Numbered from the stretch's first letter, positions 7,230 through 32,000 are shown. The stretch: 32,000 bases of DNA from Acinetobacter sp. ANC 3903 (GCF_002135315.1 NZ_NEGA01000024.1:25736-57735), one strand, 5' to 3'. Program-made: numbers and translations. The notes: generated from the sequence alone by a model not told the origin.

Positions 7230-7706
7230 ATGAACTTAGACCAATTATATCCGTACGGCTTTAAAAAGACTTTATTCGACCGCTTATTCGATGAAACTGA
7301 ACAGCATGATAGAGGGATTTCACTTCAGCAATTACGAGAATCTGTAGCCTCGGATCTAGAGGATTTACTGAATAGTCGTATGGCGCTGTTGGATGGTGTA
7401 ATTGATGATTTTCCTTTAGCAAAACAGTCTGTTTTGCTATTTGGGATTATTGATTTTGTCGGATTATCTACGGCCAATCCCATCGATCGGGATAAAATTT
7501 GTCAATCTATCGAACAATCAATTGCTGCGCATGAACCGAGATTAAAACAGGTTAAGGTCACCATGTTATTTGATGGTCATAATATGGGGGCATTGTCTTT
7601 AAGTATTCAAGCTTACTTAGACATTCAGCCTTTATTTGAGCCGGTTATTTTAGATGTATTACTGAAACCAACCACACAACAATATGTTATTTCCGCCAGA
7701 TCTTAA
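7230..7706 (+). CDS. tssE: T6SS baseplate protein TssE (gp25-like)
   Basis: 158 aa. The LFDRL...SVASDLEDLLNSR motif is typical of gp25/TssE. Position between hcp and tssF. Confidence 0.9.
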   Translation: MNLDQLYPYGFKKTLFDRLFDETEQHDRGISLQQLRESVASDLEDLLNSRMALLDGVIDDFPLAKQSVLLFGIIDFVGLSTANPIDRDKICQSIEQSIAAHEPRLKQVKVTMLFDGHNMGALSLSIQAYLDIQPLFEPVILDVLLKPTTQQYVISARS

Positions 7707-16796: not shown

Positions 16797-17558
16797 ATGA
16801 AAAAACAATATATTAAAATTATTATGCAGATCTTTTTTTTAATTTTCAGCTTATCTATAGTGACCCATGCCGAGCCGATTGTCATTGAGGGGGCGGTGCC
16901 CAATGAAGCCAGTAAACAAGAGATTTTAAATAAAATGTACACGACTTATGGGCAAGAGAATGTCATCGATAGACTTCAAGTCCGTGCTGTTACTGCTCCT
17001 AATGGTTGGAGCGGTGCTGTGAGTAATGTCATTACCGATGACTTAAAGAAAGTAAAACAAGGCAAACTAACCGTACGTGGTACGCAGGTGGATTTATCCG
17101 GAAAAATGAGCGATGAAAAGGATCTTCAGCCGACAACTACAAAATTTCACAGTCTTGTAGCAGCTCCTTATCGTTTAAATGCACAATTATCCGTAAACCA
17201 AGCTGAGCAACAAATGATTGATGCCACATTAAAGCATCGTATTATTGAATTTGAATCTGGAAGTGCTGTGTTAACTGCATCAGGCACACAAATTTTAGAT
17301 GAAATGGCGGTAGCATTGAATAAAGTCAGCGGTAAAAAAGTGAAGGTGATTGGCCACACGGATAGCTCTGGTGATGCAAATAAAAACCTGACTTTAAGCC
17401 AGCAGCGTGCAACTATAGTGAAAAATTATTTAATTGGGAAAAATATTGCAGCTGTAAATTTAACTGCAGAAGGTTTCGGTTCGAATCAACCTGTTGCTGA
17501 TAATACCACTGTAGAGGGTCGCAGAAAAAACCGTCGTATTGAGTTTCAAGTTCAATAA
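16797..17558 (+). CDS. OmpA-family peptidoglycan-binding protein (TagN-like)
   Basis: 253 aa. Signal peptide, then C-terminal OmpA_C motif (IEFESGSA...GHTDSSGDANKNLTLSQQRA...GRRKNRRIEF). Last gene of the plus-strand T6SS operon. Confidence 0.85.
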   Translation: MKKQYIKIIMQIFFLIFSLSIVTHAEPIVIEGAVPNEASKQEILNKMYTTYGQENVIDRLQVRAVTAPNGWSGAVSNVITDDLKKVKQGKLTVRGTQVDLSGKMSDEKDLQPTTTKFHSLVAAPYRLNAQLSVNQAEQQMIDATLKHRIIEFESGSAVLTASGTQILDEMAVALNKVSGKKVKVIGHTDSSGDANKNLTLSQQRATIVKNYLIGKNIAAVNLTAEGFGSNQPVADNTTVEGRRKNRRIEFQVQ

Positions 17559-22011: not shown

Positions 22012-22623
22012 TTATCTATTTTCCAGAATGGATAAAAATGCTTCGATAAAGTTAGGTAGTCTTTTATGATGAATTTGTCCCACTTTAATGATTTCATAAG
22101 TTAAACCATCGGGTTGGAGCTTCTCACTTTCTATTTTTAACAGTTGTTGGGTTGACTGTAAGCCCTTTAACCAATCTTCAAGTGCTTTGATCGGTATATC
22201 ATTTTTAATATCGCCACCTTGCATCGCTGTTTTAAAATGGCTTAAGGTTGTACTGTCTTTAAAGCAGACTTCAACCCGATGTTCGGTACTGTTAAATAGA
22301 TCATGCTTGATCACAAACAGAAATTTTCCACTGACAGGTTTTAGGGCAGTGATATAAATATTTTTATGGTTTAGGCTATATCTTTTATTTTTGGCATTAT
22401 TAAATTCTGAAGTCCATCCTTGAGACTCTAAAAATTTATCCATTTCAATGAAGATCAGATCGGTGACTTGTTCTTCAAGCGTATCTGCAAGCTCCTTAAG
22501 TTCATGGCTAATCACGATTAAATTATTTTCCAACTTTGATCGTTGGGATTCCTCATCATCATGCTGTTTGGATTGGGCTAATACGGCTTGGAAGCGTTGT
22601 TCAGGCGTCATGATTCTACTCAC
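22012..22623 (-). CDS. Hypothetical protein (203 aa), no family recognised
   Basis: Single long ORF in an AT-rich region, with a charged coiled-coil-like N-terminus. Confidence 0.6.
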   Translation of the reverse strand: MSRIMTPEQRFQAVLAQSKQHDDEESQRSKLENNLIVISHELKELADTLEEQVTDLIFIEMDKFLESQGWTSEFNNAKNKRYSLNHKNIYITALKPVSGKFLFVIKHDLFNSTEHRVEVCFKDSTTLSHFKTAMQGGDIKNDIPIKALEDWLKGLQSTQQLLKIESEKLQPDGLTYEIIKVGQIHHKRLPNFIEAFLSILENR

Positions 22624-23101
22624 TTGATATAAAGCCTTATGCGTTAATGATGTGGCTGAATATATATAATTGCAAGTAAGAAGAAGGTACTTAAACCAAT
22701 CGTTTTCAACAGAATATAGATGAGTGTAAAATTATATATTATTGATATGTAAATATAAATTAATTAATTTTGATATCTGTGATATGTAATAGTGGTTAAA
22801 ATAAATACACATTTTGTAGCGATTCAACGAAGCAAATTTTTATTGCGCAAATTTCTCACTGGAATCCGAAAAAATTAATGGAATAAGAAGCAACTCAATA
22901 GAACATTTCTAATAAGTCACGTTAAGGGAGAATAATACTGTTGGGTAAGTAACAACTCTAATTTTAATATTTAGATAACTTGCAGACTATGAAAAGATGA
23001 CATACCTAATGACACTTAATTATTTTGATCTAAATTTACTAAGATTGAATAATTATTGCCAAACAATCATTTTTGAATCATTGACGTCCGTAAACAGAGT
23101 A

Positions 23102-24074
23102 ACCCCAATCCTGTTTAAGCCAATGATTCCATAATCTGAATGATTGGCTTATTTCGATGGATTAATTGGTATGCACATACCGAAGCATAAATCCCACTTA
23201 AAAAGCCCGAAATACTACGAGCTTTACTTGTTACTAAATTGTATTGTCCTTTCAATAGGCTGAATAACGTTTCTATTTTATTGCGCTGTTTTAAGTGATA
23301 TTCATCAGATTTTGGTAGTTGAACAGACTTCATATTCTTTCGATGATAGGTAATCAAATCAATACCTTGATCTCTTAATCTGCTTTTTAATTCTTGGCTG
23401 ATATAGCCACGATCTCCATAGAGCTTCGCTTGTAAACCTGTAACTAACTGCTCAACCATTTTAATGTCAGCAATATGCCCATTGGATAATGCTGAGCTAA
23501 TGATCTCGCCAAATTGATTCATCACGATATGTAATTTACAGCCATAAAACCACCCCATCGAGCTTTTACCGCGAGATGCGATCTTGGCTAATGATTTATG
23601 GCGTTGGATGCGTTGATTTTTACAGACAGGTAGAGTCGTTGAGTCAATCCATAAATATTGTTTGTATTGATCTTTCATCAGAGCGACATGTAGAGCGTGT
23701 AGTGCCAATTGATGCCTATTAATCAGGTGAATCATGCGATGGTAACAGGGCAAGCTTTTAAATAAATGACTTTTATCCTGTTTCAACCATGAGAAGAATG
23801 CTTTGAAATTGTTGAAGTGAGAACACTTATACCAAATGGCGATAAAGGTGATTTCAGAGATACTCAGTTGTGCTTTTCGGATTCTTAAGCAGTGATTGCT
23901 TTGCTTTAGAAATTTCCAATAAGTTGCTTCAAATTTAAGAAAGAAATCATCAATTACACAGAATAATTCGGTACTATTGAACATAAGGACTAGAGTTGTG
24001 AGTTTGGTGTGGTAACTCAACTGATGGCTCTAGTCCTCCCGTTTTTCAAGTTAAGTCTTATCCGCGATTCGGGT
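23102..24074 (-). mobile_element. IS982-family insertion sequence (ISAba4/ISAba9/ISAba825-like), about 973 bp, apparently intact
   Basis: Imperfect terminal inverted repeats: ACCCCAATCCTGTTTAAGCC (23102->) versus ACCCGAATCGCGGATAAGAC (reverse complement of 24074<-), about 14/20 matches. Flanked by the direct repeat AGAGTA at 23096-23101 and 24075-24080. Single DDE transposase ORF. Confidence 0.85.
23115..23984 (-). CDS. IS982-family DDE transposase
   Basis: Probable start is MFNSTELFCVIDDFF (ATG at 23984; the track extends to 23115..24020). Family-typical blocks: LWIDSTTLPVCKNQRI, WFYGCKLHIVMN, LYGDRGYIS, YHRKNM...RNKIETLFSLLK. Confidence 0.88.
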   Translation of the reverse strand: MFNSTELFCVIDDFFLKFEATYWKFLKQSNHCLRIRKAQLSISEITFIAIWYKCSHFNNFKAFFSWLKQDKSHLFKSLPCYHRMIHLINRHQLALHALHVALMKDQYKQYLWIDSTTLPVCKNQRIQRHKSLAKIASRGKSSMGWFYGCKLHIVMNQFGEIISSALSNGHIADIKMVEQLVTGLQAKLYGDRGYISQELKSRLRDQGIDLITYHRKNMKSVQLPKSDEYHLKQRNKIETLFSLLKGQYNLVTSKARSISGFLSGIYASVCAYQLIHRNKPIIQIMESLA

Positions 24075-24141: not shown

Positions 24142-24169
24142 ATTTCGTATAATATATATTATGTTAAAT
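24142..24169 (+). other. dif site (XerC arm ATTTCGTATAA, central TATATA, XerD arm TTATGTTAAAT); left junction (attL) of the integrated phage array
   Basis: 28-bp match to the gammaproteobacterial dif layout. The XerD arm is identical to E. coli dif (TTATGTTAAAT) and the XerC arm equals the Acinetobacter dif/pdif XerC consensus. Repeat identity with the second site starts at 24157. Confidence 0.85.
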
Positions 24170-24213
24170 AAGATATCCGAGATTGCGCCCTACATAACTC
24201 AGCCGTTGGCGCA

Positions 24214-24259
24214 ACTTCACTGGAGAGATTCACCAACATATTAATCTCTCCAGTGAAGT
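24214..24259. other. Perfect 17-bp inverted repeat hairpin (candidate packaging signal or minus-strand origin); second copy at 25717-25762
   Basis: ACTTCACTGGAGAGATT (24214-24230), a 12-nt loop, then AATCTCTCCAGTGAAGT (24243-24259). It is preceded by a 7-bp stem, TTGCGCC (24183-24189) paired with GGCGCAA (24208-24214). Confidence 0.6.
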
Positions 24260-24301
24260 ATCTTAATGAACATAATATACGTTATGCCGAAATCCGTGAG
24301 C

Positions 24302-24332
24302 TTTGGAAGTTTATATTTTTATTTTGGAAGTT
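24302..24332. repeat. Two 10-bp direct repeats TTTGGAAGTT spaced 21 bp apart (iteron-like); second copy at 25805-25835
   Basis: TTTGGAAGTT at 24302-24311 and at 24323-24332, inside the 415-bp repeat. Confidence 0.5.
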
Positions 24333-24543
24333 AATTTATAAACGTCCAATTCATTTTACTAAGCAACTCACCTACGGATCACAAAGCAGCTAATAGGATG
24401 ACATTACAAGCCTAACAATTCAGGAAAAAATAAATACGCCAATCCATAGAATAAAAATGGCTGCAATGCCAATAAAAGCAATGCAAAAATTAAAGCCTTC
24501 AAATTGATATTTTTTAACATAAAAGCCCTATTTTGATTCAAAT

Positions 24544-24690
24544 TTAGTCAATCGTAACCCGCATGTTATAAATGGGGGTGGAAAAATCAGTCAGGAGACT
24601 CGATTCAGGACTGAAGAAGTGTTGATTTAGGGTACTTTCCCCCGTGTTTTCACGGGTAATGGTGCTTTTTTGATCATTCTTATTTTTCAT
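24544..24690 (-). pseudogene. Truncated Rep: first 42 codons of the phage replication initiator fused to intergenic sequence (48-aa stub)
   Basis: 24572-24690 is identical to 31882-32000. Translation is MKNKNDQKSTITRENTGESTLNQHFFSPESSLLTDFSTPIYN then MRVTID*. Confidence 0.85.
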
Positions 24691-24890
24691 GATTAACCCC
24701 AATTAAAACAAACTGAATAGCCAGAGATAAAACCTAAAACAACACCAAGAGCATATGAAGCTAAATGTAGACCTGACATGTAATCACCCCAAACAACGAG
24801 TTAAATGGAATGAAATAAGACCTTTGAACATGATTGAATGACAACGAGGACATTCAGCAAGGTCGATTTGATGAACTGCATTAATTCGCA

Positions 24891-25139
24891 TTAGCAATCC
24901 CCCATTTCTTCTTTTAATTCAGCATTTGTTTTCTTATAGAGATCTGCATAAGCATCAATGTATGAATAGTCATAAGCCATTTCACTTGCAACAAGCGCCA
25001 AGTGTTCTAAGCACTGCTCTGTAGAGAAAGCAGGTACAAAGTTCTCTAAAGCGCATTGACCATGTTGAGAAACCAGTTCAGCAACTCGGTTAAAGGCTGC
25101 TTGGGTGAAATCTTGAGGACTCTTATAATTTAGTTCCAT
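24891..25139 (-). CDS. Phage hypothetical protein (82 aa), first gene of the leftward (replication) operon
   Basis: ORF upstream of rep' on the same strand and divergent from the 68-aa ORF. No family recognised. Confidence 0.5.
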   Translation of the reverse strand: MELNYKSPQDFTQAAFNRVAELVSQHGQCALENFVPAFSTEQCLEHLALVASEMAYDYSYIDAYADLYKKTNAELKEEMGDC

Positions 25140-25202
25140 GTAACAACATCACATGCAATGATTTTGACGAAACATAACACAATTACACGTAACAATACAA
25201 CA

Positions 25203-25225
25203 TGTGACAAAATAATATTGTCACA
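25203..25225. promoter_or_regulatory. Operator-like perfect palindrome TGTGACAA-AATAATA-TTGTCACA in the divergent promoter region
   Basis: 8-bp arms separated by 7 bp. It lies 24 bp upstream of the 68-aa ORF start, in the 109-bp gap between divergent ORFs. Confidence 0.5.
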
Positions 25226-25248
25226 AGAAACATTGTTGAGTTACTTAA

Positions 25249-25455
25249 ATGAGAAAATCTGATCTTTCAAAAACTTATAGAGTTCGCGGAGAATTTACAG
25301 ACAAGATCAAAAGCTTATCGTTAGATTTCATTATCGAAACTAAAGAAAGAATAGAAGAAGCGGATATCGTTAATGCTTTGCTTTACAAGCACTTAAACGA
25401 ATTAAAGGCAAAAGATGTAACTAAATATATAGAGGAAATAAAAAAAGCGGATTAA
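25249..25455 (+). CDS. Small phage regulator candidate (68 aa), divergent from the replication operon (repressor position)
   Basis: Only plus-strand gene of the module. Charged and helical, followed by an intrinsic terminator. The function is inferred from its position, analogous to rstR in CTXphi-type phages. Confidence 0.5.
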   Translation: MRKSDLSKTYRVRGEFTDKIKSLSLDFIIETKERIEEADIVNALLYKHLNELKAKDVTKYIEEIKKAD

Positions 25456-25490
25456 TTTGATTTTCATGGATATTGAGTACTGAACAAAAA

Positions 25491-25516
25491 GGGCCTTTTA
25501 TAGGCCCTTCTCTTTT
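25491..25516 (+). terminator. Intrinsic terminator after the 68-aa ORF
   Basis: GGGCC-TTTTATA-GGCCC hairpin followed by TTCTCTTTT. Confidence 0.6.
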
Positions 25517-25642
25517 GATACATTTTGCCAATCATAAAAAATAGTGAAAAACATTAAGTTATTGTTTTTTATAAATTACGTTTAGCTAGGGAAAAGCTCT
25601 CCGGTTTAACTCGATGTGTAATAAAATGCCAAGCTCTGACGA

Positions 25643-25672
25643 ATGTCGCATAACGTAACTATTATGTTAAAT
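25643..25672 (+). other. dif-like phage attP / tandem junction: ATGTCGCATAA - CGTAACTA - TTATGTTAAAT
   Basis: The XerD arm is identical to the one at 24159-24169. A good XerC-like arm (9/11 to ATTTCGTATAA; TCGCATAA as in E. coli dif) is found only if the central region is 8 bp. Confidence 0.6.
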
Positions 25673-26074
25673 AAGATATCCGAGATTGCGCCCTACATAA
25701 CTCAGCCGTTGGCGCAACTTCACTGGAGAGATTCACCAACATATTAATCTCTCCAGTGAAGTATCTTAATGAACATAATATACGTTATGCCGAAATCCGT
25801 GAGCTTTGGAAGTTTATATTTTTATTTTGGAAGTTAATTTATAAACGTCCAATTCATTTTACTAAGCAACTCACCTACGGATCACAAAGCAGCTAATAGG
25901 ATGACATTACAAGCCTAACAATTCAGGAAAAAATAAATACGCCAATCCATAGAATAAAAATGGCTGCAATGCCAATAAAAGCAATGCAAAAATTAAAGCC
26001 TTCAAATTGATATTTTTTAACATAAAAGCCCTATTTTGATTCAAATTTAGTCAATCGTAACCCGCATGTTATAA
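25660..26074. repeat. 415-bp direct repeat, copy 2
   Basis: Identical to 24157-24571. Confidence 0.95.
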
Positions 26075-26078
26075 GCCG

Positions 26079-26279
26079 CTATAATCTGCCAATCGTATGA
26101 TCCAACTTAATAAAAAGTACCTTTAATTGATCAATCTCTCGAGATAAATCATCATTCGATAACTGTATGTTTTCTAAATGTTTTTCTAAACATTCACGGA
26201 TAAAAATATAATCTTCTTTAAGTAAAACTCCCTTATTTCTATTGTAGCCAACTGTTCTATATAGATGTCTATTAATCAT
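26079..26279 (-). CDS. Phage accessory hypothetical protein (66 aa)
   Basis: ORF between zot and the intergenic region, divergent from the 87-aa ORF. No family recognised. Confidence 0.4.
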   Translation of the reverse strand: MINRHLYRTVGYNRNKGVLLKEDYIFIRECLEKHLENIQLSNDDLSREIDQLKVLFIKLDHTIGRL

Positions 26280-26320
26280 TCAGTGTAAAATCCGATTTTT
26301 ATCACATACTTAGATTAACC

Positions 26321-26584
26321 ATGCTAGAAAATCTATTTAATAAAAACAGATATATTTCAAACACCAATCTACTGTATAAAATTGCCAAAGATGCGTTACT
26401 TGAAAAGCATGTCATTAAACGCGGAAATCAAATTTTAGTATATGAAATCAGCAGCTTAAGACAGAAAGGAAAATTCATCAAAAGTCTGGAAATCAATAAA
26501 TTACCTATCACATTAAAATCAAAAAAATCAATCAAATATGCAAAAGTACCTAAACGTTCAGAAATCATTAAAGATTTTATTTAA
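26321..26584 (+). CDS. Phage accessory hypothetical protein (87 aa, very basic)
   Basis: Only plus-strand ORF within the structural half of the phage. Lys-rich. Followed by a GGGCG-GAACA-CGCCC hairpin at 26592-26606. Confidence 0.45.
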   Translation: MLENLFNKNRYISNTNLLYKIAKDALLEKHVIKRGNQILVYEISSLRQKGKFIKSLEINKLPITLKSKKSIKYAKVPKRSEIIKDFI

Positions 26585-26647
26585 TCAGTTCGGGCGGAAC
26601 ACGCCCTCTGTTATGCCCTATTAGATTCATTCTCCCGGATTTTGTAA

Positions 26648-28039
26648 TCAGAGAGAAGATGTTTCAGTATTTTGATTTTCCGGTTCACTCGTAGACACTC
26701 GCTCTGTAGATTGTTGATTAGAGTGTGATTGATTTGTTGAAGAATTACCCTGAGCAAAATAATTAAATGGTCTGTAACCATCTAACCACCTTCTACAATC
26801 CTTTTCAGACACTGAGAGCATATAGTTACCCTGCTGATCCACAGCAACAAGCTTACCACTGGAGAGCTTTATCACACCTGACATTCTAGGAAAGTCATTT
26901 GGATTTACTTCCTCAGGCACATATTCAAAATCATAAGGTTTTGAAGGATCATAAACATACTTCTTAACCTCTCCAGCTGAAGAAACCGATAAGCCACCTT
27001 TTGAAATATCATCAAACCATTTTGTGCATTCAGGTGTTTCAATATTTACAGCTTTTCTACAGATATTAGATAAATCTTGAATCTGCTGTTGTTGGGGTTG
27101 CTGTTGTGTCTGAGCCTTAGTCTGTTGTGGAGAAGCCGAAGACGTTGAAACAGTTTCAGCTTGAGCAGAATTCTTAAAGAATCCAAATTCAGAGGAATAA
27201 GCTCGATAGCCAGAATAAACAATTAAACAAAGAAAAAGTAAAACTGGGATTTTCAAACCCCAAGGCAATGAAGCTTTAGCTGTATGCTGTTCTGCTGAAA
27301 TGTAATACTTAAAAAGCCGTTTAGGGAAAAACCATATTTTCCAAGAAAGAGCATTTTTACGAGTAGCATTACCGAAACTATCCTGAATCTCAGAATAACT
27401 ATAAATAATCGCCAACTGCATCTTAAAAAGACGACGAAGAATTAAATGCTCAGAGGTTGCAGCCTTAACAAAGGAATTTAAAAGGTCAGGCTTTTGAGTA
27501 ACAAGAACAATGTCAAAGCCAAAATGACGATGCATAGTTAAAGCACGGCCAATATCTAAAATATCCTCTTTAGCTCTCTCAAGTGCTACCTTTTGAAGAT
27601 TGCGAACATTTTGAATTAACTGTTCTTGTTCTTTAACCTTTAAAGATAAAGGCAATTCTGTATAAACAAAACCATGCTTATTTAAAAGATCAATTTTTAA
27701 AGGAGTTGGAAGATTTGCATAATCTAGAATTTTAGTAACTTGATTATTATAGAGTTCATTAATATATCGAGGTAACTGATAATTTTTAAGCAAATCAGTC
27801 TTAGAAAAAGCTGGGTGTTCATGGGCTTCATCAAAAACAATTAAAGAACCATCTGGAAGATCTCGCCAGTCAAAAGGATTATTTGTTGAAGATGTAATAG
27901 GCAAAACACCTGGAATATTAATTCCAATGATGTTTGTAAAAATCATACGGTTAGGATTTTTTCTAACCGTTGTTTCTAATAGTTCAACACACCAAAGTGA
28001 CTTACCTGATCCAGGTGGTGCTGATATGGCTGTAAGCAT
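26648..28039 (-). CDS. Zot-like / pI-type filamentous phage assembly ATPase
   Basis: 463 aa. N-terminal P-loop ISAPPGSGKS and Walker B LIVFDEAHE. Central TM helix (IPVLLFLCLIVYSGY) and a Q-rich linker. AAGGGG RBS. Confidence 0.9.
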   Translation of the reverse strand: MLTAISAPPGSGKSLWCVELLETTVRKNPNRMIFTNIIGINIPGVLPITSSTNNPFDWRDLPDGSLIVFDEAHEHPAFSKTDLLKNYQLPRYINELYNNQVTKILDYANLPTPLKIDLLNKHGFVYTELPLSLKVKEQEQLIQNVRNLQKVALERAKEDILDIGRALTMHRHFGFDIVLVTQKPDLLNSFVKAATSEHLILRRLFKMQLAIIYSYSEIQDSFGNATRKNALSWKIWFFPKRLFKYYISAEQHTAKASLPWGLKIPVLLFLCLIVYSGYRAYSSEFGFFKNSAQAETVSTSSASPQQTKAQTQQQPQQQQIQDLSNICRKAVNIETPECTKWFDDISKGGLSVSSAGEVKKYVYDPSKPYDFEYVPEEVNPNDFPRMSGVIKLSSGKLVAVDQQGNYMLSVSEKDCRRWLDGYRPFNYFAQGNSSTNQSHSNQQSTERVSTSEPENQNTETSSL

Positions 28040-28136
28040 TTTATACCCCTTTTGTTCGATCTCCCCACGCGCACACTAAGCAGGAATCACAGGCTCATCC
28101 CGCCCAGCGCGCGCGCATAGCGATCCCACAAATGTG

Positions 28137-28415
28137 TTAAGACTTCCCTACCCAAATACGCGCACACTTGATAAATATGACAAGCTGTATCGTGGATAGA
28201 ATCATTGATAAACATAGGTCAAGCGTTAAAAGCTTAGAGAATGAAAGTGCAAGTTCAGGAAGATTATCTAAGGAATTTTGAGCTTCAATAATTAATCCAT
28301 CTAAAATATCTTTGACCCAGTTATAAGTAACTAAAGTCAGACCCGCACCCATAAGAATACGAGCAATAACACTAGAAATTAATGAAGTTAAAACAAGGGC
28401 CAACAACTTAGACAT
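28137..28415 (-). CDS. pVI-like minor coat/membrane protein
   Basis: 92 aa, strongly hydrophobic with several TM segments. Located between the pIII-like and pI-like genes, as in Ff-type and other inoviruses. Its start is 1 nt after the pIII-like stop. Confidence 0.65.
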   Translation of the reverse strand: MSKLLALVLTSLISSVIARILMGAGLTLVTYNWVKDILDGLIIEAQNSLDNLPELALSFSKLLTLDLCLSMILSTIQLVIFIKCARIWVGKS

Positions 28416-28416
28416 A

Positions 28417-29727
28417 TCAGACCCTCAATAAAATAAAGCCGCAGAAAACTAAAGTCATAAGCTGAAAAACATATTTAAGAGGCTCAATCGTGTTACAGAT
28501 CGGCTGCATTTGAACGGCTTTATTTACTTGAATACCGAAAGGCAAATCTTGTACATCAAATATAATATCAGCAGGACACGCCCTAACATTGGCTGTAATA
28601 AGATCTTTTTTAATTTCCTGTTTATCAAGCTCTTTTTCCGGAACATCAATAGGTTCAGGGGTTTCTGGAGGCTCTTTAGTCCAATCAAACCATTCCTTAA
28701 CTTTTGTAAAGAAAGATTCATTTTGTTTTAAATCAGTTTTTTGATTTTCTTTAATTTCTATGTTGTCTTGTTTTTGAACTTTAAAAAAATCACAAACAGA
28801 AGGTGCCCAAGTACAAAAATTAGGTAAAGTAAATTTACTACCTGCATCTGGTTTTGATGGATCATAAGTATCCGGTATACCATCACCATTTGTATCAGAA
28901 TTGGGATTTGGCGTTGTAGAACCATTAGGCTCAGTGCCAGGTTGAGGAGTAGCAGAATCTAAAGCAGCAGCTGTTTTTGCTTTTGGAGCACTTTCAGGGA
29001 TAGGACTATTTGGATCGTAAATATCAGTAATAACAGAAGGCAATGGAGACTTATTTTGACCTTCACCTAAAATTTCATTACCGAGTTCTGTATCAGACAA
29101 AAGTTCATACTCTTTAGGCTTAGGAGCATAAAGTGGGTTTGGCTCACTATAAATATCTTGATAAGTATTATTGCCATATTTAATATTATAGCCAAAACAT
29201 CTCATTGATTTTGCGCCAGTAATCGTACAAGAAGTAAATTTAATTTTATTATTAACATTACCAAACTGACTATTATTTAAATCAGATGAAAATTTAGTTA
29301 AAGCACCAGGACAATCAGAAACGGTATAACAAGTAACTGAAAAACCATTATTTGAAAGAATATAACGATTGGAATATTGAGTAGGATCAGCAGGATCTAC
29401 AGGCTTTTCTCTTTTAATAACTTGAGAACCCTCATCAATAAGCCAGCCCAAACCCTCAAGCATTACAGTAACAGATGTAAAAGCGGCAACACCAAAAATA
29501 CCAGCCCTAGCAGCAGAACCCAATTCAGAAGCAGCAACAGGCACACGAGCTTTATAAATAGGATCATTTGCAGCAGTAGCACCAACTTTTCGTGCAGTTA
29601 ATTCAACATTTTTAGAAGCTGAATCATAGACTTTTTCTACAATTTCCCACTTTTCAGCGGCACCTGCATATAATTCAGTAATAGAGAAAAGAAACAAAAA
29701 GGATAATAAAATAGAAATTCTCATCAT
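28417..29727 (-). CDS. pIII-like adsorption/minor coat protein
   Basis: 436 aa. Signal peptide MMRISILLSFLFLFSITELYAGA. Pro/Thr/Gly/Asn/Asp-rich linker (TPQPGTEPNGSTTPNPNSDTNGDGIPDTYDPSKPDAG). C-terminal membrane anchor LMTLVFCGFILLRV. Confidence 0.75.
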   Translation of the reverse strand: MMRISILLSFLFLFSITELYAGAAEKWEIVEKVYDSASKNVELTARKVGATAANDPIYKARVPVAASELGSAARAGIFGVAAFTSVTVMLEGLGWLIDEGSQVIKREKPVDPADPTQYSNRYILSNNGFSVTCYTVSDCPGALTKFSSDLNNSQFGNVNNKIKFTSCTITGAKSMRCFGYNIKYGNNTYQDIYSEPNPLYAPKPKEYELLSDTELGNEILGEGQNKSPLPSVITDIYDPNSPIPESAPKAKTAAALDSATPQPGTEPNGSTTPNPNSDTNGDGIPDTYDPSKPDAGSKFTLPNFCTWAPSVCDFFKVQKQDNIEIKENQKTDLKQNESFFTKVKEWFDWTKEPPETPEPIDVPEKELDKQEIKKDLITANVRACPADIIFDVQDLPFGIQVNKAVQMQPICNTIEPLKYVFQLMTLVFCGFILLRV

Positions 29728-29828
29728 TTTAAAATCCTATAGAGAGCGACGCAGATCACGACGAGAATGAAATAATTTAAAAAAGACTCAACTGACATGA
29801 TCTGCACCTAAAACACTTATGGAAAGGA

Positions 29829-30107
29829 TTATTTCTTTTTAATTACAGAAACAACCAAACCAAAAATAACGATACCCACAACAATAGTAAGCACCCAAAT
29901 ACCAGTAGAACTTAGAACTTCTTCACCACCCGCAGCCGTAGTTGCTGTTGTGACATCAGCAGCTTTAATAAAAGCGTTAGAAGAAGTTGAAACAGCTAGA
30001 GCGATAGTCGCACCAGCAGCAGCACCCATTTTGTATTTGAAACGCTGAAACCATGATTTTTCATGAATCTCTTGAGTTTCAATTTTTTCTACATTTTGTA
30101 ATCCCAT
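29829..30107 (-). CDS. pVIII-like major coat protein precursor
   Basis: Strong RBS AAGGAG 7 nt upstream of the ATG at 30107. Internal hydrophobic leader ending ...STSSNAF. The predicted mature part has an acidic/Thr-Ala-rich N-terminus, hydrophobic core IWVLTIVVGIVIFGLVV and basic tail SVIKKK. Confidence 0.75.
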   Translation of the reverse strand: MGLQNVEKIETQEIHEKSWFQRFKYKMGAAAGATIALAVSTSSNAFIKAADVTTATTAAGGEEVLSSTGIWVLTIVVGIVIFGLVVSVIKKK

Positions 30108-30130
30108 AGGATTCTCCTTTTTAAGTTAAG

Positions 30131-30316
30131 TTAGCGTGCTTTTTTTACTATCTGGAGAACACGCGTAATTATGAAAACTCCAGCAAACATTTTTAGAACA
30201 TACTTAATGAGTTCATCTCTGGCCTCATCAGTAAGTTCTGGAAGAAATGGAGTGAAAAGAACCCACTGATCACACGCCTGAGTTGCAGCATTAACGACTT
30301 CACAAACGTATGCCAT
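30131..30316 (-). CDS. Small phage protein (61 aa) with hydrophobic C-terminal segment
   Basis: Lies between the pV-like and pVIII-like genes, where inoviruses encode small virion or assembly proteins. The overlapping track ORF 30193..30399 is rejected. Confidence 0.5.
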   Translation of the reverse strand: MAYVCEVVNAATQACDQWVLFTPFLPELTDEARDELIKYVLKMFAGVFIITRVLQIVKKAR

Positions 30317-30328
30317 TTCTTAAAATCC

Positions 30329-30631
30329 TTAACTAGCTGACTTTGGCTGAACCTTTTCAGGCACCAAATCAACAAGAAGTGTTTTTGAATCAACGCCATT
30401 GTTTACGACATTAAAGATCGCTCTAGCTTTAAATGGCGGTTCAAATTTTTCAATGAGGTCATAATTCGAAGAAAGCCCCCAAGTGTATTGAGTGCTGACA
30501 ATGCCCTTAGAACGCTCACCAGATTGCATATCAGTTTCAATATAGACCTTGGTTGAATCGTAAGGCTTTCCGTTCATTTCACCCTTAGAGGCTTTAAAAG
30601 CGGTAACTACAACATCAGATTGCATTAGCAT
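30329..30631 (-). CDS. pV-like ssDNA-binding protein
   Basis: Lies immediately downstream of rep. Start chosen at ATG 30631 (AGGA 8 nt upstream); the track extends to 30664. NGKPYDS and the C-terminal LVDLVPEK resemble the f1 gene V blocks QGKPYS and LRLVPAK. Confidence 0.6.
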   Translation of the reverse strand: MLMQSDVVVTAFKASKGEMNGKPYDSTKVYIETDMQSGERSKGIVSTQYTWGLSSNYDLIEKFEPPFKARAIFNVVNNGVDSKTLLVDLVPEKVQPKSAS

Positions 30632-32000
30632 GAGTAAATTCCTTATATGAGGAGTTATTGACACCAGCCACGCCTACAAATAAAGGCATTTCATCGAGAG
30701 AACTTGTTGGTTTACAAGCATCAAGCGAAGATTTAATTGGCTGTTTTAAACGGATTGACTGCATCACAGCAGCATGAGAAAACTTGAGACGCTTCGGCAC
30801 TTCATCTTTTGGGGATGAAAGCATTGCGATTAATGCATCAGACTCAATAACTTTTGAGTATTGACGGATATATTTTCCGAATTGTTCACGGACAATTTCG
30901 ATTGAACAATCCCAGTTAATTTGAGACGTTTTTTTAACAACTTGAGTCTTTTCAGGCGTTACAAAGTCTTTTTCTAATTGCTTGGCAAGCCATTCAAAAC
31001 AAGGATATGCACCCAAAAAGTACTGTGAAGGAGACAGCAGAATATCAAGCGGAATATAACGATCCTTAGATTTAAACTCGACTTCTGCACGTGTCCAAGG
31101 ACTTAAAGGACTGCCCTCCTTTTTGCCACGTTCATAGAAACGGCAATACTTGCCACTAGTACGATCACCAACACAGAATGAACGACCCTTACCATTTGGA
31201 CGCTTCCAAGCACCCGGCTTTTCAATTTTCGGAGCACGACCACCACACCAGAAACCGTCAAGATCATCCCAGTGATCGGCAATATCTACAGATATATACT
31301 TGCCTTCAAAGTCATCATAAGCCAAGTCACAGCGGGTAATTTTTGGATTAACACAACCCTTAACTATTTCAATGCCAGTTGAAGAATCAAAGAAACGCTC
31401 ATAAGAAGTAAGCCATTTGTATAAACGGAGCTGCCAGCCTTTACGGGCCAAAGCACAGCCCGAACCGTTGATTTGTACAGATATTTTCTTAGAGCTATGG
31501 CCGTAAAGCACCATGCCGAGCATGTCTTGAAGTTCATATGCAAACTTGTAGTTATGCATACCACGATCACGTTTTTTTTCTAAGCCAAAGCCAAAAATCT
31601 CATAAAGATGGTGATCTAAGAAAGTTTCAATGCCGTAGGTTAATGAAGATTCGGCATTATCAGGATCAATAGAAAAATATTCTTTGCCTAGGGTAGATTG
31701 GCAAAAGCTAAAAGTTAGCCAGTCATGTGAAGCAATACCGTATTCATCACAAGGAACTGAATGCAGAATTGGCACATTGCCCTTTTCTGTTAGAACCATT
31801 TTTACGTTGTCGAGCTTCCGCGGGAAGGTGAACTCATCGCACTTCAGGCGAGGATCAACTGCCGTAACCCCCATATTATAAATGGGGGTGGAAAAATCAG
31901 TCAGGAGACTCGATTCAGGACTGAAGAAGTGTTGATTTAGGGTACTTTCCCCCGTGTTTTCACGGGTAATGGTGCTTTTTTGATCATTCTTATTTTTCAT
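30615..32000 (-). CDS. Rolling-circle replication initiation protein (filamentous-phage pII / replication-initiation-factor type)
   Basis: 461 aa. Blocks RCDLAYDDFEG and CRFYERGKKEG...WTRAEVEFKSKD resemble Rep_trans-type initiators. First gene of the phage operon. Its ATG is the last triplet of the window (31998-32000); the duplicated copy at 24690 shows an in-frame TAA 5 codons upstream. Confidence 0.8.
   Translation of the reverse strand: MKNKNDQKSTITRENTGESTLNQHFFSPESSLLTDFSTPIYNMGVTAVDPRLKCDEFTFPRKLDNVKMVLTEKGNVPILHSVPCDEYGIASHDWLTFSFCQSTLGKEYFSIDPDNAESSLTYGIETFLDHHLYEIFGFGLEKKRDRGMHNYKFAYELQDMLGMVLYGHSSKKISVQINGSGCALARKGWQLRLYKWLTSYERFFDSSTGIEIVKGCVNPKITRCDLAYDDFEGKYISVDIADHWDDLDGFWCGGRAPKIEKPGAWKRPNGKGRSFCVGDRTSGKYCRFYERGKKEGSPLSPWTRAEVEFKSKDRYIPLDILLSPSQYFLGAYPCFEWLAKQLEKDFVTPEKTQVVKKTSQINWDCSIEIVREQFGKYIRQYSKVIESDALIAMLSSPKDEVPKRLKFSHAAVMQSIRLKQPIKSSLDACKPTSSLDEMPLFVGVAGVNNSSYKEFTHANAI
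31867..31889 (-). other. Perfect 8-bp stem / 7-nt loop hairpin inside rep codons 38-45 (candidate plus-strand origin or nick site)
   Basis: ACCCCCAT-ATTATAA-ATGGGGGT. The mini-element deletion junction maps to the loop hexamer TTATAA. Confidence 0.5.

Follow-up and report, generated by a model that had tools for sequence, protein, structure and literature searches.

What brings a filamentous phage without an integrase to the chromosomal dif site, and in what form does it reside there? This is the question raised by the genome of Acinetobacter sp. ANC 3903, in which we analyzed a window of 32,000 nucleotides (GCF_002135315.1 NZ_NEGA01000024.1:25736-57735) whose positions 24142-32000 are occupied by a phage array.

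An inovirus array abutting dif

The site at the left end of the array (Table 1) is the sole match in the window to the degenerate Acinetobacter dif pattern (at most 3 mismatches; 0.01 matches expected by chance), and it differs at 3 positions from the published dif of A. baylyi ADP1, GATTCGTATAATGTATATTATGTTAAAT (PMC2731167). The canonical 28-bp dif proposed in the sequence-only reading was thus recovered, and it is probably still functional at this junction. The same reading had placed a T6SS cluster about 6.6 kb away, and the cluster (TssM/IcmF, TagF and an OmpA-domain gene) indeed ends at 17558, 6.6 kb from dif. As to the replication terminus proposed for this place, the GC skew shifts at about 24 kb, just where phage DNA begins. 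A comparison with genomes carrying an empty dif had also been proposed: in Acinetobacter sp. SA01 we found dif in the syntenic position, behind the same T6SS-amidase-GntR-hypothetical genes, but no clean empty site was found among the related genomes compared.

From left to right, the region consists of dif, a 1503-bp mini-element (Unit A), a regenerated attP and a full phage of 7310 nt (Unit B), with the phage genes on the minus strand. As had been noted, the same 415 bp follow both XerD arms: positions 24157-24571 and 25660-26074 form an exact repeat (100% identity) that begins 2 nt ahead of the arm. The two units had been taken for tandem phage copies; by sequence comparison, however, only the second is a full phage, and the first is a 1.5-kb deletion derivative that corresponds to the phage minus 5.8 kb. 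Unit A contains the shared module, a hybrid Rep-site junction, the first 46 rep codons, the regulatory module, and the phage XerC arm with its spacer. Since 24553-24690 and 31863-32000 share 136 of 138 positions, it ends in the 46-codon N-terminal part of rep. In short-read assemblies of this strain, contigs stop precisely at the array repeats, so that the integrated position of the mini-element is known from the present assembly alone. In the closest relative (about 89% nucleotide identity), rep is followed around the circle by the upstream module, attP, the shared module and zot, as predicted. As far as sequence allows a test, the evidence supports the proposed array of an integrase-less inovirus next to the chromosomal dif. 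The right end of the array falls beyond the window; in complete integrated relatives, the right junction has the form that had been predicted, with the phage XerC arm and the XerD arm ahead of non-phage DNA.

Table 1. Coordinates of the features of the array, counted from the first nucleotide of the window.
Feature	Position	Strand	Basis or remark
Chromosomal dif, attL of the array	24142..24169	+	XerC arm ATTTCGTATAA / TATATA / XerD arm TTATGTTAAAT
Unit A (1503-bp mini-element)	24157..25659	-	sequence comparison
Two inner hairpins, fork of folded attP, copy A	24183..24259 (24183-24214, 24214-24259)	.	inverted repeat, 17/17 bp
Site 2, copy A, inverted dif-like 28-mer	24265..24292	-	reverse complement TTTCGGCATAA CGTATA TTATGTTCATT
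45-aa hydrophobic ORF in shared module, copy A	24404..24541	-	ORF call
Truncated rep: 46 N-terminal codons followed by out-of-frame shared-module sequence	24544..24702	-	repeat comparison
Hybrid Rep-site junction	24554..24579	.	O2-type left, GTAACCCGCATGTTATAA, joined to O1-type right, ATGGGGGT
82-aa ORF, first gene of rep-side operon	24891..25139	-	phrog_20873; kept beside rep in relatives
Palindrome in divergent intergenic region	25203..25225	.	TGTGACAATATTATTTTGTCACA; candidate operator, putative function
68-aa ORF, opposite strand, adjoining attP	25249..25455	+	phrog_5219
Complete folded attP region: site 2, fork, site 1	25630..25805	-	strand expected to be packaged; -46.3 kcal/mol, z = -10.4
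Site 1, attP-type site between units	25643..25672	+	ATGTCGCATAA / CGTAACTA / TTATGTTAAAT
Unit B (full phage copy, runs off window)	25660..32000	-	predicted unit length 7310 nt
Site 2, copy B	25768..25795	-	same dif-like 28-mer
45-aa hydrophobic ORF, copy B	25907..26044	-	ORF call
O2, second Rep-site-like 18-mer closing shared module	26057..26074	.	GTAACCCGCATGTTATAA
66-aa ORF	26079..26279	-	phrog_13740; kept in all relatives
87-aa ORF, opposite strand	26321..26584	+	ORF call
Zot/pI-like assembly ATPase, 463 aa	26648..28039	-	HMM
pVI-like minor coat protein (DUF2523), 92 aa	28137..28415	-	DUF2523, E = 1.6e-11
pIII-like adsorption protein (TspB C-terminal-like), 436 aa	28417..29727	-	Neisseria_TspB-like, E = 4.7e-6
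Candidate major coat protein, 92 aa	29829..30107	-	hydrophobic C-terminal segment, KKK tail, position
Small protein, 61 aa, C-terminal hydrophobic segment	30131..30316	-	phrog_13391
Protein of about 100-111 aa in pV/RstB position	30329..30664	-	phrog_4994, a PHROG without assigned function
Rep, 461 aa, Rep_trans family (as RstA of CTXphi, RepC of pT181)	30615..32000	-	HMM
O1, candidate plus-strand origin hairpin, rep codons about 38-46	31864..31889	.	GTAACCCCCAT ATTATAA ATGGGGGT; putative origin function

Gene content of the phage

Rep, whose ATG is formed by the final three bases of the window, matched Rep_trans (PF02486, E = 1.2e-18) and the replication initiator phrog_453 (E = 8e-91), and Zot matched PF05707 (E = 2e-13) and phrog_197 (E = 2e-59). 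The TspB-like, DUF2523 and Zot genes are adjacent on one strand, in the pIII-pVI-pI order. A complete inovirus core had been proposed from the sequence, and its Zot, Rep_trans, DUF2523 and TspB-like (pIII, pVI) assignments all passed the HMM thresholds. The other two members of the core are candidates: pV by gene position, and pVIII by gene position and protein features, with a weak PHROG match (phrog_7106, E = 0.006); a PDB search returned no match for either protein. Family searches gave no match for the 45-aa hydrophobic ORF. From its position, the 68-aa ORF is a candidate repressor, like rstR. All ORFs of 24157-32000 are accounted for, and none encodes an integrase or transposase or has a recombinase domain, in line with the absence of an integrase from the original gene list.

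attP as a pair of inverted dif-like sites

The second site recognized in the sequence-only reading, with an XerD arm identical to that of dif and a phage-type XerC arm, corresponds to our site 1; its XerC arm has 2 mismatches to the host arm and its spacer is 8 nt long. The idea of an attP regenerated between the units therefore stands, but this attP is not a single site. Site 2 lies inverted relative to site 1, with 95 nt between the two 28-mers (83 nt between the paired arms) and a 6-nt spacer close to the host TGTATA. Exact copies of its 25-nt core occur in 13 stretches from IMG/VR and 63 from metagenomes, and the site is invariant across dozens of contigs, whereas the neighbouring fork changes by compensation (15 of 22 pairs in the fork helices). 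Pairing holds for 98.7% of cells across 14 distinct attP regions, with compensatory changes at 17 of 53 pairs and a dif-like stem that is invariant in both arms; none of 500 shuffles reached the attP value, and slid controls yielded 1-4 such pairs. These patterns support an attP consisting of two inverted dif-like sites predicted to pair as a forked hairpin in single-stranded DNA, as in CTXphi.

Long inverted repeats bound as duplex palindromes would also covary, which counts against the hairpin reading. A forked hairpin could instead serve packaging or minus-strand priming, which counts against a role in integration.

Junctions and the side of the crossover

We collected 11 distinct left junctions in relatives in addition to that of the window. 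All consist of the host XerC arm, a host-type 6-nt central region (TGTATA, GCTCTA, TATAGA or TATATA), the XerD arm and then phage; the phage spacer was seen in 0 of the 11, nor in the window. The attL had been described as the chromosomal XerC arm joined to phage DNA, and is actually a complete dif with the host central region. At the right junctions of relatives (n = 4), the phage XerC arm is followed by the XerD arm and then by non-phage DNA; between the arms, L032, L040 and L060 have the phage spacer CGTAATT, and L002 has the sequence CGTAGGA; both ends of one element are visible in L032 and L060. The phage spacer has 7 nt in three of these four junctions, and 8 nt at the internal site 1 of the window. 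Every crossover maps to site 1, and none to site 2 among the junctions examined. Since the host XerC arm and central region lie on the left and the phage XerC arm on the right, the crossover is on the XerD side. Judged from these sequences, it is located at the boundary of the XerD arm and the central region or inside the XerD arm, the mirror image of the Vibrio IMEXs. We infer both the identity of the recombinase and the strandedness of its substrate from the junction sequences alone.

About 15 related loci have a differing left junction, TAGGTGAACATAA followed by GTTAAAT, which we count against our best explanation. It also counts against exchange by XerD that this recombinase as a rule depends on FtsK or XafT as activator, and no XafT-like (DUF3653) protein was detected among the phage proteins at E <= 1. 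In the common variant with the 7-nt spacer, the base beside the XerD arm is T in the phage and A in the host, a difference that would disfavour one of the two ligations.

Recurrent mini-elements and two Rep-site-like motifs

The deletion in the mini-element is joined at two related 18-mers, one within rep and the other ending the shared module. A census of these motifs gave 24 O2, 19 O1 and 7 hybrids. All 7 have O2 to the left of O1; the reciprocal form (O1 left, O2 right) was seen 0 times. O2 is identical in 24 of 24 occurrences (22 sources), and all hybrids switch past the last mismatch, in TTATAA. Outside the window, the hybrid junction was found in 6 other loci with diverged flanks, including a finished plasmid and the chromosome of another species; arrays and mini-elements were identified in the window and at five further loci. 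A lineage whose Rep is 36% identical has the same architecture with a different motif (ACCCCCATTAATAAGATG left of the junction) and mini-elements of its own. The recurrence of the hybrid junction points to mini-elements as putative Rep-made satellites.

The hybrid junctions in 7 loci may stem from few events, which counts against Rep as the maker of satellites.

A model of integration and its alternatives

With moderate confidence, we interpret the region as an array of two elements from one Acinetobacter inovirus family, put into dif by the host XerC/XerD through the following route. The packaged plus strand would fold, and XerCD would bind the stem; only the bottom strands would be exchanged with dif, at the point where XerD cleaves in the hairpin's 3' arm, and replication would resolve the junction. 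An intact dif would remain on the XerC-arm side, and integration would be irreversible because the hairpin is absent from duplex DNA. The mini-element would be a product of Rep: rolling-circle replication between O1 and O2 would free a 1.5-kb circle with attP, which would integrate as the phage does. In the plus sense, the mini-element lies downstream of the full copy. If Rep nicked O1 of the full copy and stopped at the mini-element's hybrid site, a single whole genome of 7310 nt would be set free with its attP intact. The mini-element would then have the same role as RS1, or a second CTX prophage in tandem, has for CTXphi.

The crossover could also have occurred in a double-stranded replicative form, with site 1 alone as attP, XerD acting first upon activation by FtsK or a phage factor, and the hairpin with site 2 serving, for example, as packaging signal or minus-strand origin. 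That every crossover maps to site 1, with its good XerC arm and perfect XerD arm, speaks for this view, as do known XerD-first IMEXs (e.g., TLCphi), known IMEXs whose attP consists of an XerD arm plus central region (e.g., PM2-like phages), and the equally good folding of the two strands of the hairpin. However, a purely structural hairpin would need no invariant dif-like stem, and site 2 is invariant with a proper 6-nt spacer; moreover, XerD-then-XerC exchange across 6-nt versus 7-8-nt spacers predicts the phage spacer at roughly half of the attL sites, at odds with the left junctions observed. We consider this scenario unlikely. We regard as far less probable still, indeed as very improbable, the classical mode of CTXphi and VGJphi, in which XerC exchanges top strands and replication resolves the junction. 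[quoted passage not shown] The opposite was found at every junction (11 left plus the window, 4 right), which contradicts an exchange on the XerC side. If the coding strand is packaged, the genes should moreover run in the same direction as the dif top strand in this mode, and here they are antiparallel.

The mini-element, in turn, might be an accidental deletion over 17/19-bp microhomology, or an assembly artefact of episomal defective genomes, with no role as a satellite. The two 18-mers are similar enough for illegitimate recombination, defective miniphages are common in Ff phage stocks, and the integrated position comes from one assembly, those from short reads breaking at the repeats. Against an accident stand the same junction amid diverged flanks in the 6 other loci, the switch point that always lies within the last 6 nt, the lack of the reciprocal product, the invariance of O2, and the lineage with 36% Rep identity, in which the motif pair co-varies and mini-elements are present. 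An accident or artefact thus seems quite improbable to us.

Comparison with known systems

The array had been likened to the CTXphi, VGJphi and TLC-type elements of Vibrio, a parallel that holds for the CTXphi-like attP fold but not for the side of the crossover, which is opposite to that of CTXphi and VGJphi. For CTXphi, a folded attP, irreversible integration and production from tandem copies are established precedents (PMC4246890, PMC4439123). Like CTXphi and RS1 of Vibrio cholerae, the present phage is an integrase-less inovirus with a Rep_trans-family initiator, has two inverted dif-like attP sites in a forked hairpin (separated by about 90 nt in CTXphi and, according to where the arms are taken to end, by 83-95 nt here), and forms tandem dif arrays that include a shorter related element, in a layout that would permit rolling-circle production between adjacent origins. 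Unlike in CTXphi, where the crossover is on the XerC side and dif is re-created on the far (right) side, here it is on the XerD side of site 1 and the intact dif is on the XerC-arm flank; the candidate origin lies inside rep, and toxin genes are absent. RS1 encodes RstA, whereas the short partner here is a deletion derivative without a complete rep.

The crossover position is compatible with the XerD-first exchange of TLCphi-type IMEXs. TLCphi, however, has a degenerate XerD arm, a dif-identical central region, a duplex attP and the activator XafT, and XerC finishes the reaction. In the present family, every copy has a perfect XerD arm, the 7-8-nt spacer differs from that of dif in length and sequence, attP is foldable, and DUF3653 was not found. 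The spacer of site 1 resembles the 29-bp attP of VGJphi, which also uses host Xer with no integrase; VGJphi has a single site with reversible XerC-side exchange, in contrast to the two inverted sites and XerD-side junctions seen here.

Rolling-circle plasmids of the pT181 family share the Rep_trans initiator, and pT181 carries its nick hairpin within the N-terminal coding part of rep, where the candidate origin hairpin lies here. Ff miniphages are likewise sub-genomic circles that arise between two origin-like sites, as proposed here, although in the present family the second site, O2, is conserved and seems to belong to the life cycle, not to be an accident. The Af filamentous phages of Acinetobacter baumannii (Narancic et al. 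2024, PMC11209303) are likewise inoviruses of this genus, with Zot, TspB-like CoaA and a relaxase-type Rep; dif or attP sequences, an analysis of junctions and a hairpin are absent from that paper. The phage genome had no megablast match in the phage collection.

Possible implications for Xer exploitation and pdif modules

The family could represent a fourth way of exploiting Xer, a possibility we put forward tentatively and with some doubt: a folded single-stranded attP, one exchange at the XerD position and resolution by replication, together with self-made attP satellites of 1-1.5 kb generated via a second Rep site. With dif left intact on the XerC-arm side, phages would pile up on the side of dif opposite to that of classical IMEXs; at one related locus, dif is flanked left and right by two different inoviruses. 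An Acinetobacter pdif module is a small plasmid gene module bounded by inversely oriented XerC/D sites, unlike the present element, which is phage-derived and bounded by directly oriented sites. Two relatives (L001, L002) are located at plasmid pdif-like sites, and after insertion the sites alternate C/D, D/C, C/D. Since relatives and mini-elements at such sites create this alternation, single-stranded mini-circles of this kind could account for the otherwise unexplained movement of pdif modules on Acinetobacter plasmids.

The dif locus and the structure of the array

The sequence-only reading had recognised a canonical dif to the right of the T6SS genes, and this site (ATTTCGTATAA TATATA TTATGTTAAAT; XerC arm, central region and XerD arm) proved to be the sole match in the 32-kb window to a degenerate Acinetobacter-type pattern (up to 3 mismatches, both strands), with 0.01 matches expected by chance. 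It differs at 3 positions from the dif of A. baylyi ADP1 (PMC2731167). To its left lie T6SS genes, an OmpA-domain gene, an amidase, a GntR/aminotransferase gene and a 264-aa hypothetical gene; the best named relatives of the flank proteins are from Acinetobacter, and similar DNA in annotated collections was found only in Acinetobacter johnsonii plasmids. Acinetobacter sp. SA01 (L022) has the same left-flank gene order, followed about 440 bp on by ATTTCGTATAA TGTATA TTATGTTAAAT. The window site is therefore the chromosomal dif locus of the clade. The GC skew changes sign near 24 kb; since the change coincides with the start of phage DNA, all of whose genes are on the minus strand, it was not counted as evidence for the terminus.

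An array of two units starts at dif (see table). The same 415 bp had been noted after both XerD arms, and the stretch from 24157, 2 bases before the first XerD arm, is indeed repeated exactly at 25660-26074 (hereafter, the shared module). Just before the second copy comes ATGTCGCATAA CGTAACTA (25643-25661), part of an attP-type site (site 1) with a different XerC-type arm and an 8-nt spacer. From another repeat (24553-24690 against 31863-32000, 136/138 identical) it is clear that the first unit ends in rep, of which it has the first 46 codons; the ATG of rep is formed by the final three bases of the window. The unit length given by the repeats is 7310 nt. The view of the array as tandem phage copies was right about the attP-type site between the units; the first unit, however, is not a full copy, but a mini-element (unit A) corresponding to the same genome without 26075-31881.

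Main features of the array and its left flank (window positions)
Feature	Position	Description
203-aa ORF	22012-22623	between conserved flank and IS; no annotation possible
IS, IS5/DDE_Tnp_1_3 family	23115-24020 (about 22900-24040)	between conserved flank and dif, about 120 bp left of dif
dif	24142-24169	XerC arm, central region, XerD arm
Unit A	24157-25659	1503-bp mini-element
Site 2	24265-24292 and 25768-25795	inverted; dif-like 28-mer
Hybrid site (O2/O1)	about 24566-24571	predicted Rep stop
Palindrome TGTGACAATATTATTTTGTCACA	25203-25225	perfect arms; between divergent 82-aa and 68-aa ORFs
Site 1	25643-25672	attP-type
Unit B	25660 to beyond 32000	full phage copy; order in plus sense (window minus strand): regulatory module (82-aa ORF, divergent 68-aa ORF); rep; 100-111-aa protein; 61-aa protein; 92-aa coat candidate; pIII-like; pVI-like; Zot; antisense 87-aa ORF; 66-aa ORF; shared module (45-aa hydrophobic ORF, attP)
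O1	31876-31881	predicted Rep start

The gene set had been read as a complete inovirus core. HMM searches support Rep (Rep_trans, E = 1.2e-18; phrog_453, 8e-91), Zot (E = 2e-13; phrog_197, 2e-59), a DUF2523 protein in the pVI position (E = 1.6e-11) and a TspB-like protein in the pIII position (E = 4.7e-6), whereas the pV and pVIII labels reflect position and protein features only. There is no recombinase gene within the element, which is integrase-less as proposed. The small ORFs have neither DUF3653 nor any other domain (Pfam, E <= 1), a PDB sequence search with the 111-aa and 82-aa proteins gave empty or meaningless matches, and promoter and terminator scans stayed at background level. The palindrome between the divergent ORFs is a candidate operator of the lysogeny switch.

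The right end of the array lies beyond the window, and the data on right junctions are from relatives. The closest of these, the IMG/VR contig L011 (about 89% nucleotide identity), runs contiguously through rep, the 82-aa ORF, attP, the shared module, the 66-aa and 87-aa ORFs and zot, confirming the circular order predicted for the unseen right end. Exact-protein look-ups gave no match for Rep and pIII, and for Zot, the 82-aa ORF and a flank gene they returned only short Logan contigs ending at repeats or IS. Megablast against the phage collection gave no match. The genome-collection scan found 3 loci only, one of them chromosomal (L006, A. johnsonii CIP 64.6), a scaffold with N gaps at the repeats.

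A folded attP with two dif-like sites

The shared module contains a second, inverted dif-like 28-mer (site 2; reverse complement TTTCGGCATAA CGTATA TTATGTTCATT), 83 nt past the paired arm of site 1 and with 95 nt between the two 28-mers. As single-stranded DNA, the 176 nt around 25630-25805 fold into a long stem of site 2 with site 1, with a 2-nt spacer bulge and two inner hairpins, at -46.3 kcal/mol versus -15.3 +/- 3.0 in shuffles (z = -10.4); folding of the complementary strand is just as favourable. CTXphi attP(+) has the same architecture (PMC4246890).

Exact copies of a 25-nt core of site 2 are present in 13 IMG/VR stretches and 63 metagenome stretches. In a comparison of 14 distinct attP regions, neither arm of the stem varies in its dif-like part, and the fork and distal stem show compensatory change: double changes are seen in 17 of the 53 pairs, and pairing holds in 98.7% of cells. 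These values were reached by 0 of 500 shuffles, and slid controls gave 1-4 such pairs. The covariation shows upkeep of the inverted repeats, not their action as a Xer substrate, a role that is putative.

Position of the crossover

The left junction had been predicted to keep the host XerC arm, as it does; the crossover, though, does not lie at the XerC arm, because the central region is the host TATATA and not the phage CGTAACTA, and phage identity starts 2 bases before the XerD arm. Relatives contributed 11 further distinct left-junction sequences, all with a host-type XerC arm and a 6-nt host-type centre, and the phage spacer was found in none of these 11. The host-type XerC arms at left junctions are ATTTCGTATAA, ATTGCGTATAA, ATTACGTATAA, GTTACGTATAA or GTTTCGTATAA; the central region is mostly TGTATA, otherwise GCTCTA or TATAGA, and is followed by TTATGTTAAAT and the shared module. 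The right junctions of relatives (n = 4) consist of the phage XerC arm ATGTCGCATAA, a spacer (phage CGTAATT in three, CGTAGGA in one), TTATGTTAAAT and non-phage DNA. Both ends of one mini-element are visible in L032 and in L060, and no junction at site 2 appeared in the census, whose contigs perhaps do not all represent independent events, though their flanks differ.

An exchange by XerC only, on a folded strand or on duplex DNA, predicts the phage spacer on the left and the host spacer on the right, the opposite of what is seen. XerC-first models, considered for each of the two strands and for duplex DNA, are out, since they would place the phage spacer at the left junction, and a complete two-step Xer reaction, with each spacer outcome expected half the time, does not fit the census. 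On the simplest reading, only the bottom strands would be exchanged, at the position of XerD cleavage, and replication would follow. Inoviruses in general package the coding strand; given this, the bottom-strand cut would fall in the 3' arm of the hairpin. The spacer CGTATA of the free 5' arm is complementary to the host bottom strand over 4-5 nt from the XerD side, which would stabilise the exchange. Such a reaction would leave dif intact on its XerC-arm flank, and the array would grow from the XerD arm. Against a XerD-side exchange, XerD needs an activator, and none was recognised among the small ORFs (Pfam, E <= 1); moreover, in the 7-nt spacer variant the base beside the XerD arm differs between phage and host. 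Dependence on Xer, the recombinase that would cut and the single-stranded substrate are all predictions from the junction sequences.

The arrays of about 15 related loci end in a second left-junction type, TAGGTGAACATAA/GTTAAAT, instead of dif (L006:16150-16200, L014, L021, L029, L031, L036, L040, L041, L043, L049, L059, L065 and L079, among others). Both the central region and the initial 4 nt of the XerD arm are missing here. An AT-rich stretch comes before the junction, and a GTTCATGAAC palindrome is conserved about 95 nt upstream. The junction may represent an alternative target, or else mark where another element ends.

Mini-elements are joined at a pair of Rep-site-like motifs

The two sequences brought together by the deletion in unit A are related 18-mers: one, O2, closes the shared module (...TTTAGTCAATC GTAACCCGCATGTTATAA GCCGCTA...), and the other, O1, lies at about codons 38-46 of rep (...ACTGCC GTAACCCCCATATTATAA ATGGGGGT...), where CCCCCAT pairs with ATGGGGG around the loop ATTATAA. 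The unit A junction has the O2 version of the 18-mer and then ATGGGGGT. Over all fetched loci we counted 24 O2, 19 O1 and 7 hybrid sites, each hybrid running from O2 on the left into O1 on the right. Four of the hybrids are in metagenome contigs, and the others in the window, the chromosome of A. johnsonii CIP 64.6 (L006) and a finished A. johnsonii plasmid (L002); the reciprocal hybrid (O1 left, O2 right) occurred in none of the fetched loci. The switch point in all hybrids is past the second mismatch, within TTATAA. A distant lineage (L016; Rep 36% identical) has the rep-internal motif ACCCCCATTAATAAGATG/GGGGTAAC, and in its mini-elements ACCCCCATTAATAAGATG/CCGGTAAA adjoins the sequence upstream of the 66-aa ORF homologue. 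Therefore, each of the two diverged lineages has a matched motif pair and mini-elements joined there. The L016 locus (L016:1900-11100, IMG/VR 2860764190_000001), a provirus in an isolate genome, contains at least two full copies along with two mini-elements, of 1064 and 1245 bp. Arrays of this kind can thus be long and mixed.

The plus-strand origin of pT181-type Rep_trans replicons lies inside rep, and by analogy O1 would be the plus-strand origin here. CTXphi RstA, too, nicks in a hairpin loop (PMC4439123). O2 would then be a second site for Rep termination and re-initiation; replication from O2 to O1 would free exactly the 1503-nt circle, which by its junction was probably made by Rep, and the reciprocal 5.8-kb circle would be without attP and hence not expected in integrated form. 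A Rep start at O1 and stop at the hybrid site would give exactly 7310 nt with the internal attP intact. In the plus sense, the mini-element is downstream of the full copy in the window, and from this geometry only it may act as a terminator for full-genome release, a role filled in CTXphi by tandem copies or RS1. The Rep nick sites and the production of virions are likewise predicted.

Flanks of dif and plasmid sites

Among the relatives compared there was no clean empty dif. In SA01, the nearest genome (L022:11263-11340), 53 nt of the shared module (its first fork hairpin) come after dif, fused to a GAAATCCG-like leftover of site 2, with unrelated genes beyond, namely chromosomal ABC-transporter genes. 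This looks like the scar of an earlier element, imprecisely lost, rather than an empty site. The chromosome-like metagenome contig L023 (12824-13243) has, where relatives have dif, two inversely oriented pdif-like sites 364 bp apart (ATTTCGTATTA GTACCA TTATGTTAAAT and ATTTTGCATAA CGTGTA TTATGTTAATT). Short-read assemblies of the window's own strain break at the IS near dif.

Sequence to the left of the XerC arm (...GGACATTTCTATTTT(G/A)G...TTACA...) is common to an A. johnsonii plasmid (L002:3550-3600) and two chromosome-like contigs (L022:11170-11234 and L023:12760-12823), and another flank on that side, ATAAATAACTTAGATTGCGTATAA, is common to L027, L060, L064, L076 and L046. These common flanks suggest further mobile elements on the XerC-arm side. 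In L018:1-7330 (IMG/VR 3300031134_000491), a dif (ATTGCGTATAA TGTATA TTATGTTAAAT, 7268-7295) lies between two unrelated inoviruses. The one on the XerD-arm side is a member of the window's family; the other has a Phage_CRI/G2P Rep, DUF2523 and Zot, with genes on the plus strand, collinear with the dif top strand as the classical mode predicts. Phage relatives and a mini-element were also found at pdif-like sites of A. johnsonii plasmids (L001:3955-8550, pIC001A; L002:3550-5110), the pIC001A phage being interrupted by two IS3 copies.

Relation to known elements and implications

[quoted passage not shown] A first characterisation of A. baumannii filamentous prophages appeared in 2024 (PMC11209303); one subgroup was described as tandem, with flanking replication/regulation modules, and as "probably" using host machinery like CTXphi and Ypfphi (PMC11209303). 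An analysis of dif, attP or junctions is given neither there nor in PMC12285184, and in the full-text literature on Acinetobacter with IMEX, dif or prophage we found no such analysis, dif integration appearing only as a suggestion. Given the earlier IMEX descriptions and this lack of junction analysis in Acinetobacter, the basic nature of the element, an integrase-less inovirus at dif, is already known, and three respects are new: the apparent XerD-side crossover together with a folded two-site attP, the conserved putative second Rep site giving attP-bearing mini-elements, and the use of plasmid pdif-like sites besides the chromosomal dif. XerD-side joining combined with a CTXphi-like folded attP is absent from the three described IMEX classes.

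At the sequence level, the junction census makes the case that a single widespread family of Acinetobacter inoviruses attaches to the XerD side of dif, a reading with a clear prediction for catalytic XerC and XerD mutants. For annotation, the edges of such arrays are where to look for dif in this clade. Self-made mini-elements would be a simple explanation of the replication/regulation modules flanking A. baumannii filamentous prophages, and would also account for short-read assembly breaks there. Xer-site (pdif) modules are carriers that spread carbapenemase genes in Acinetobacter, and to our knowledge the mechanism of their mobilisation is still unknown; the presence of this family at plasmid pdif-like sites ties phage biology to these modules.
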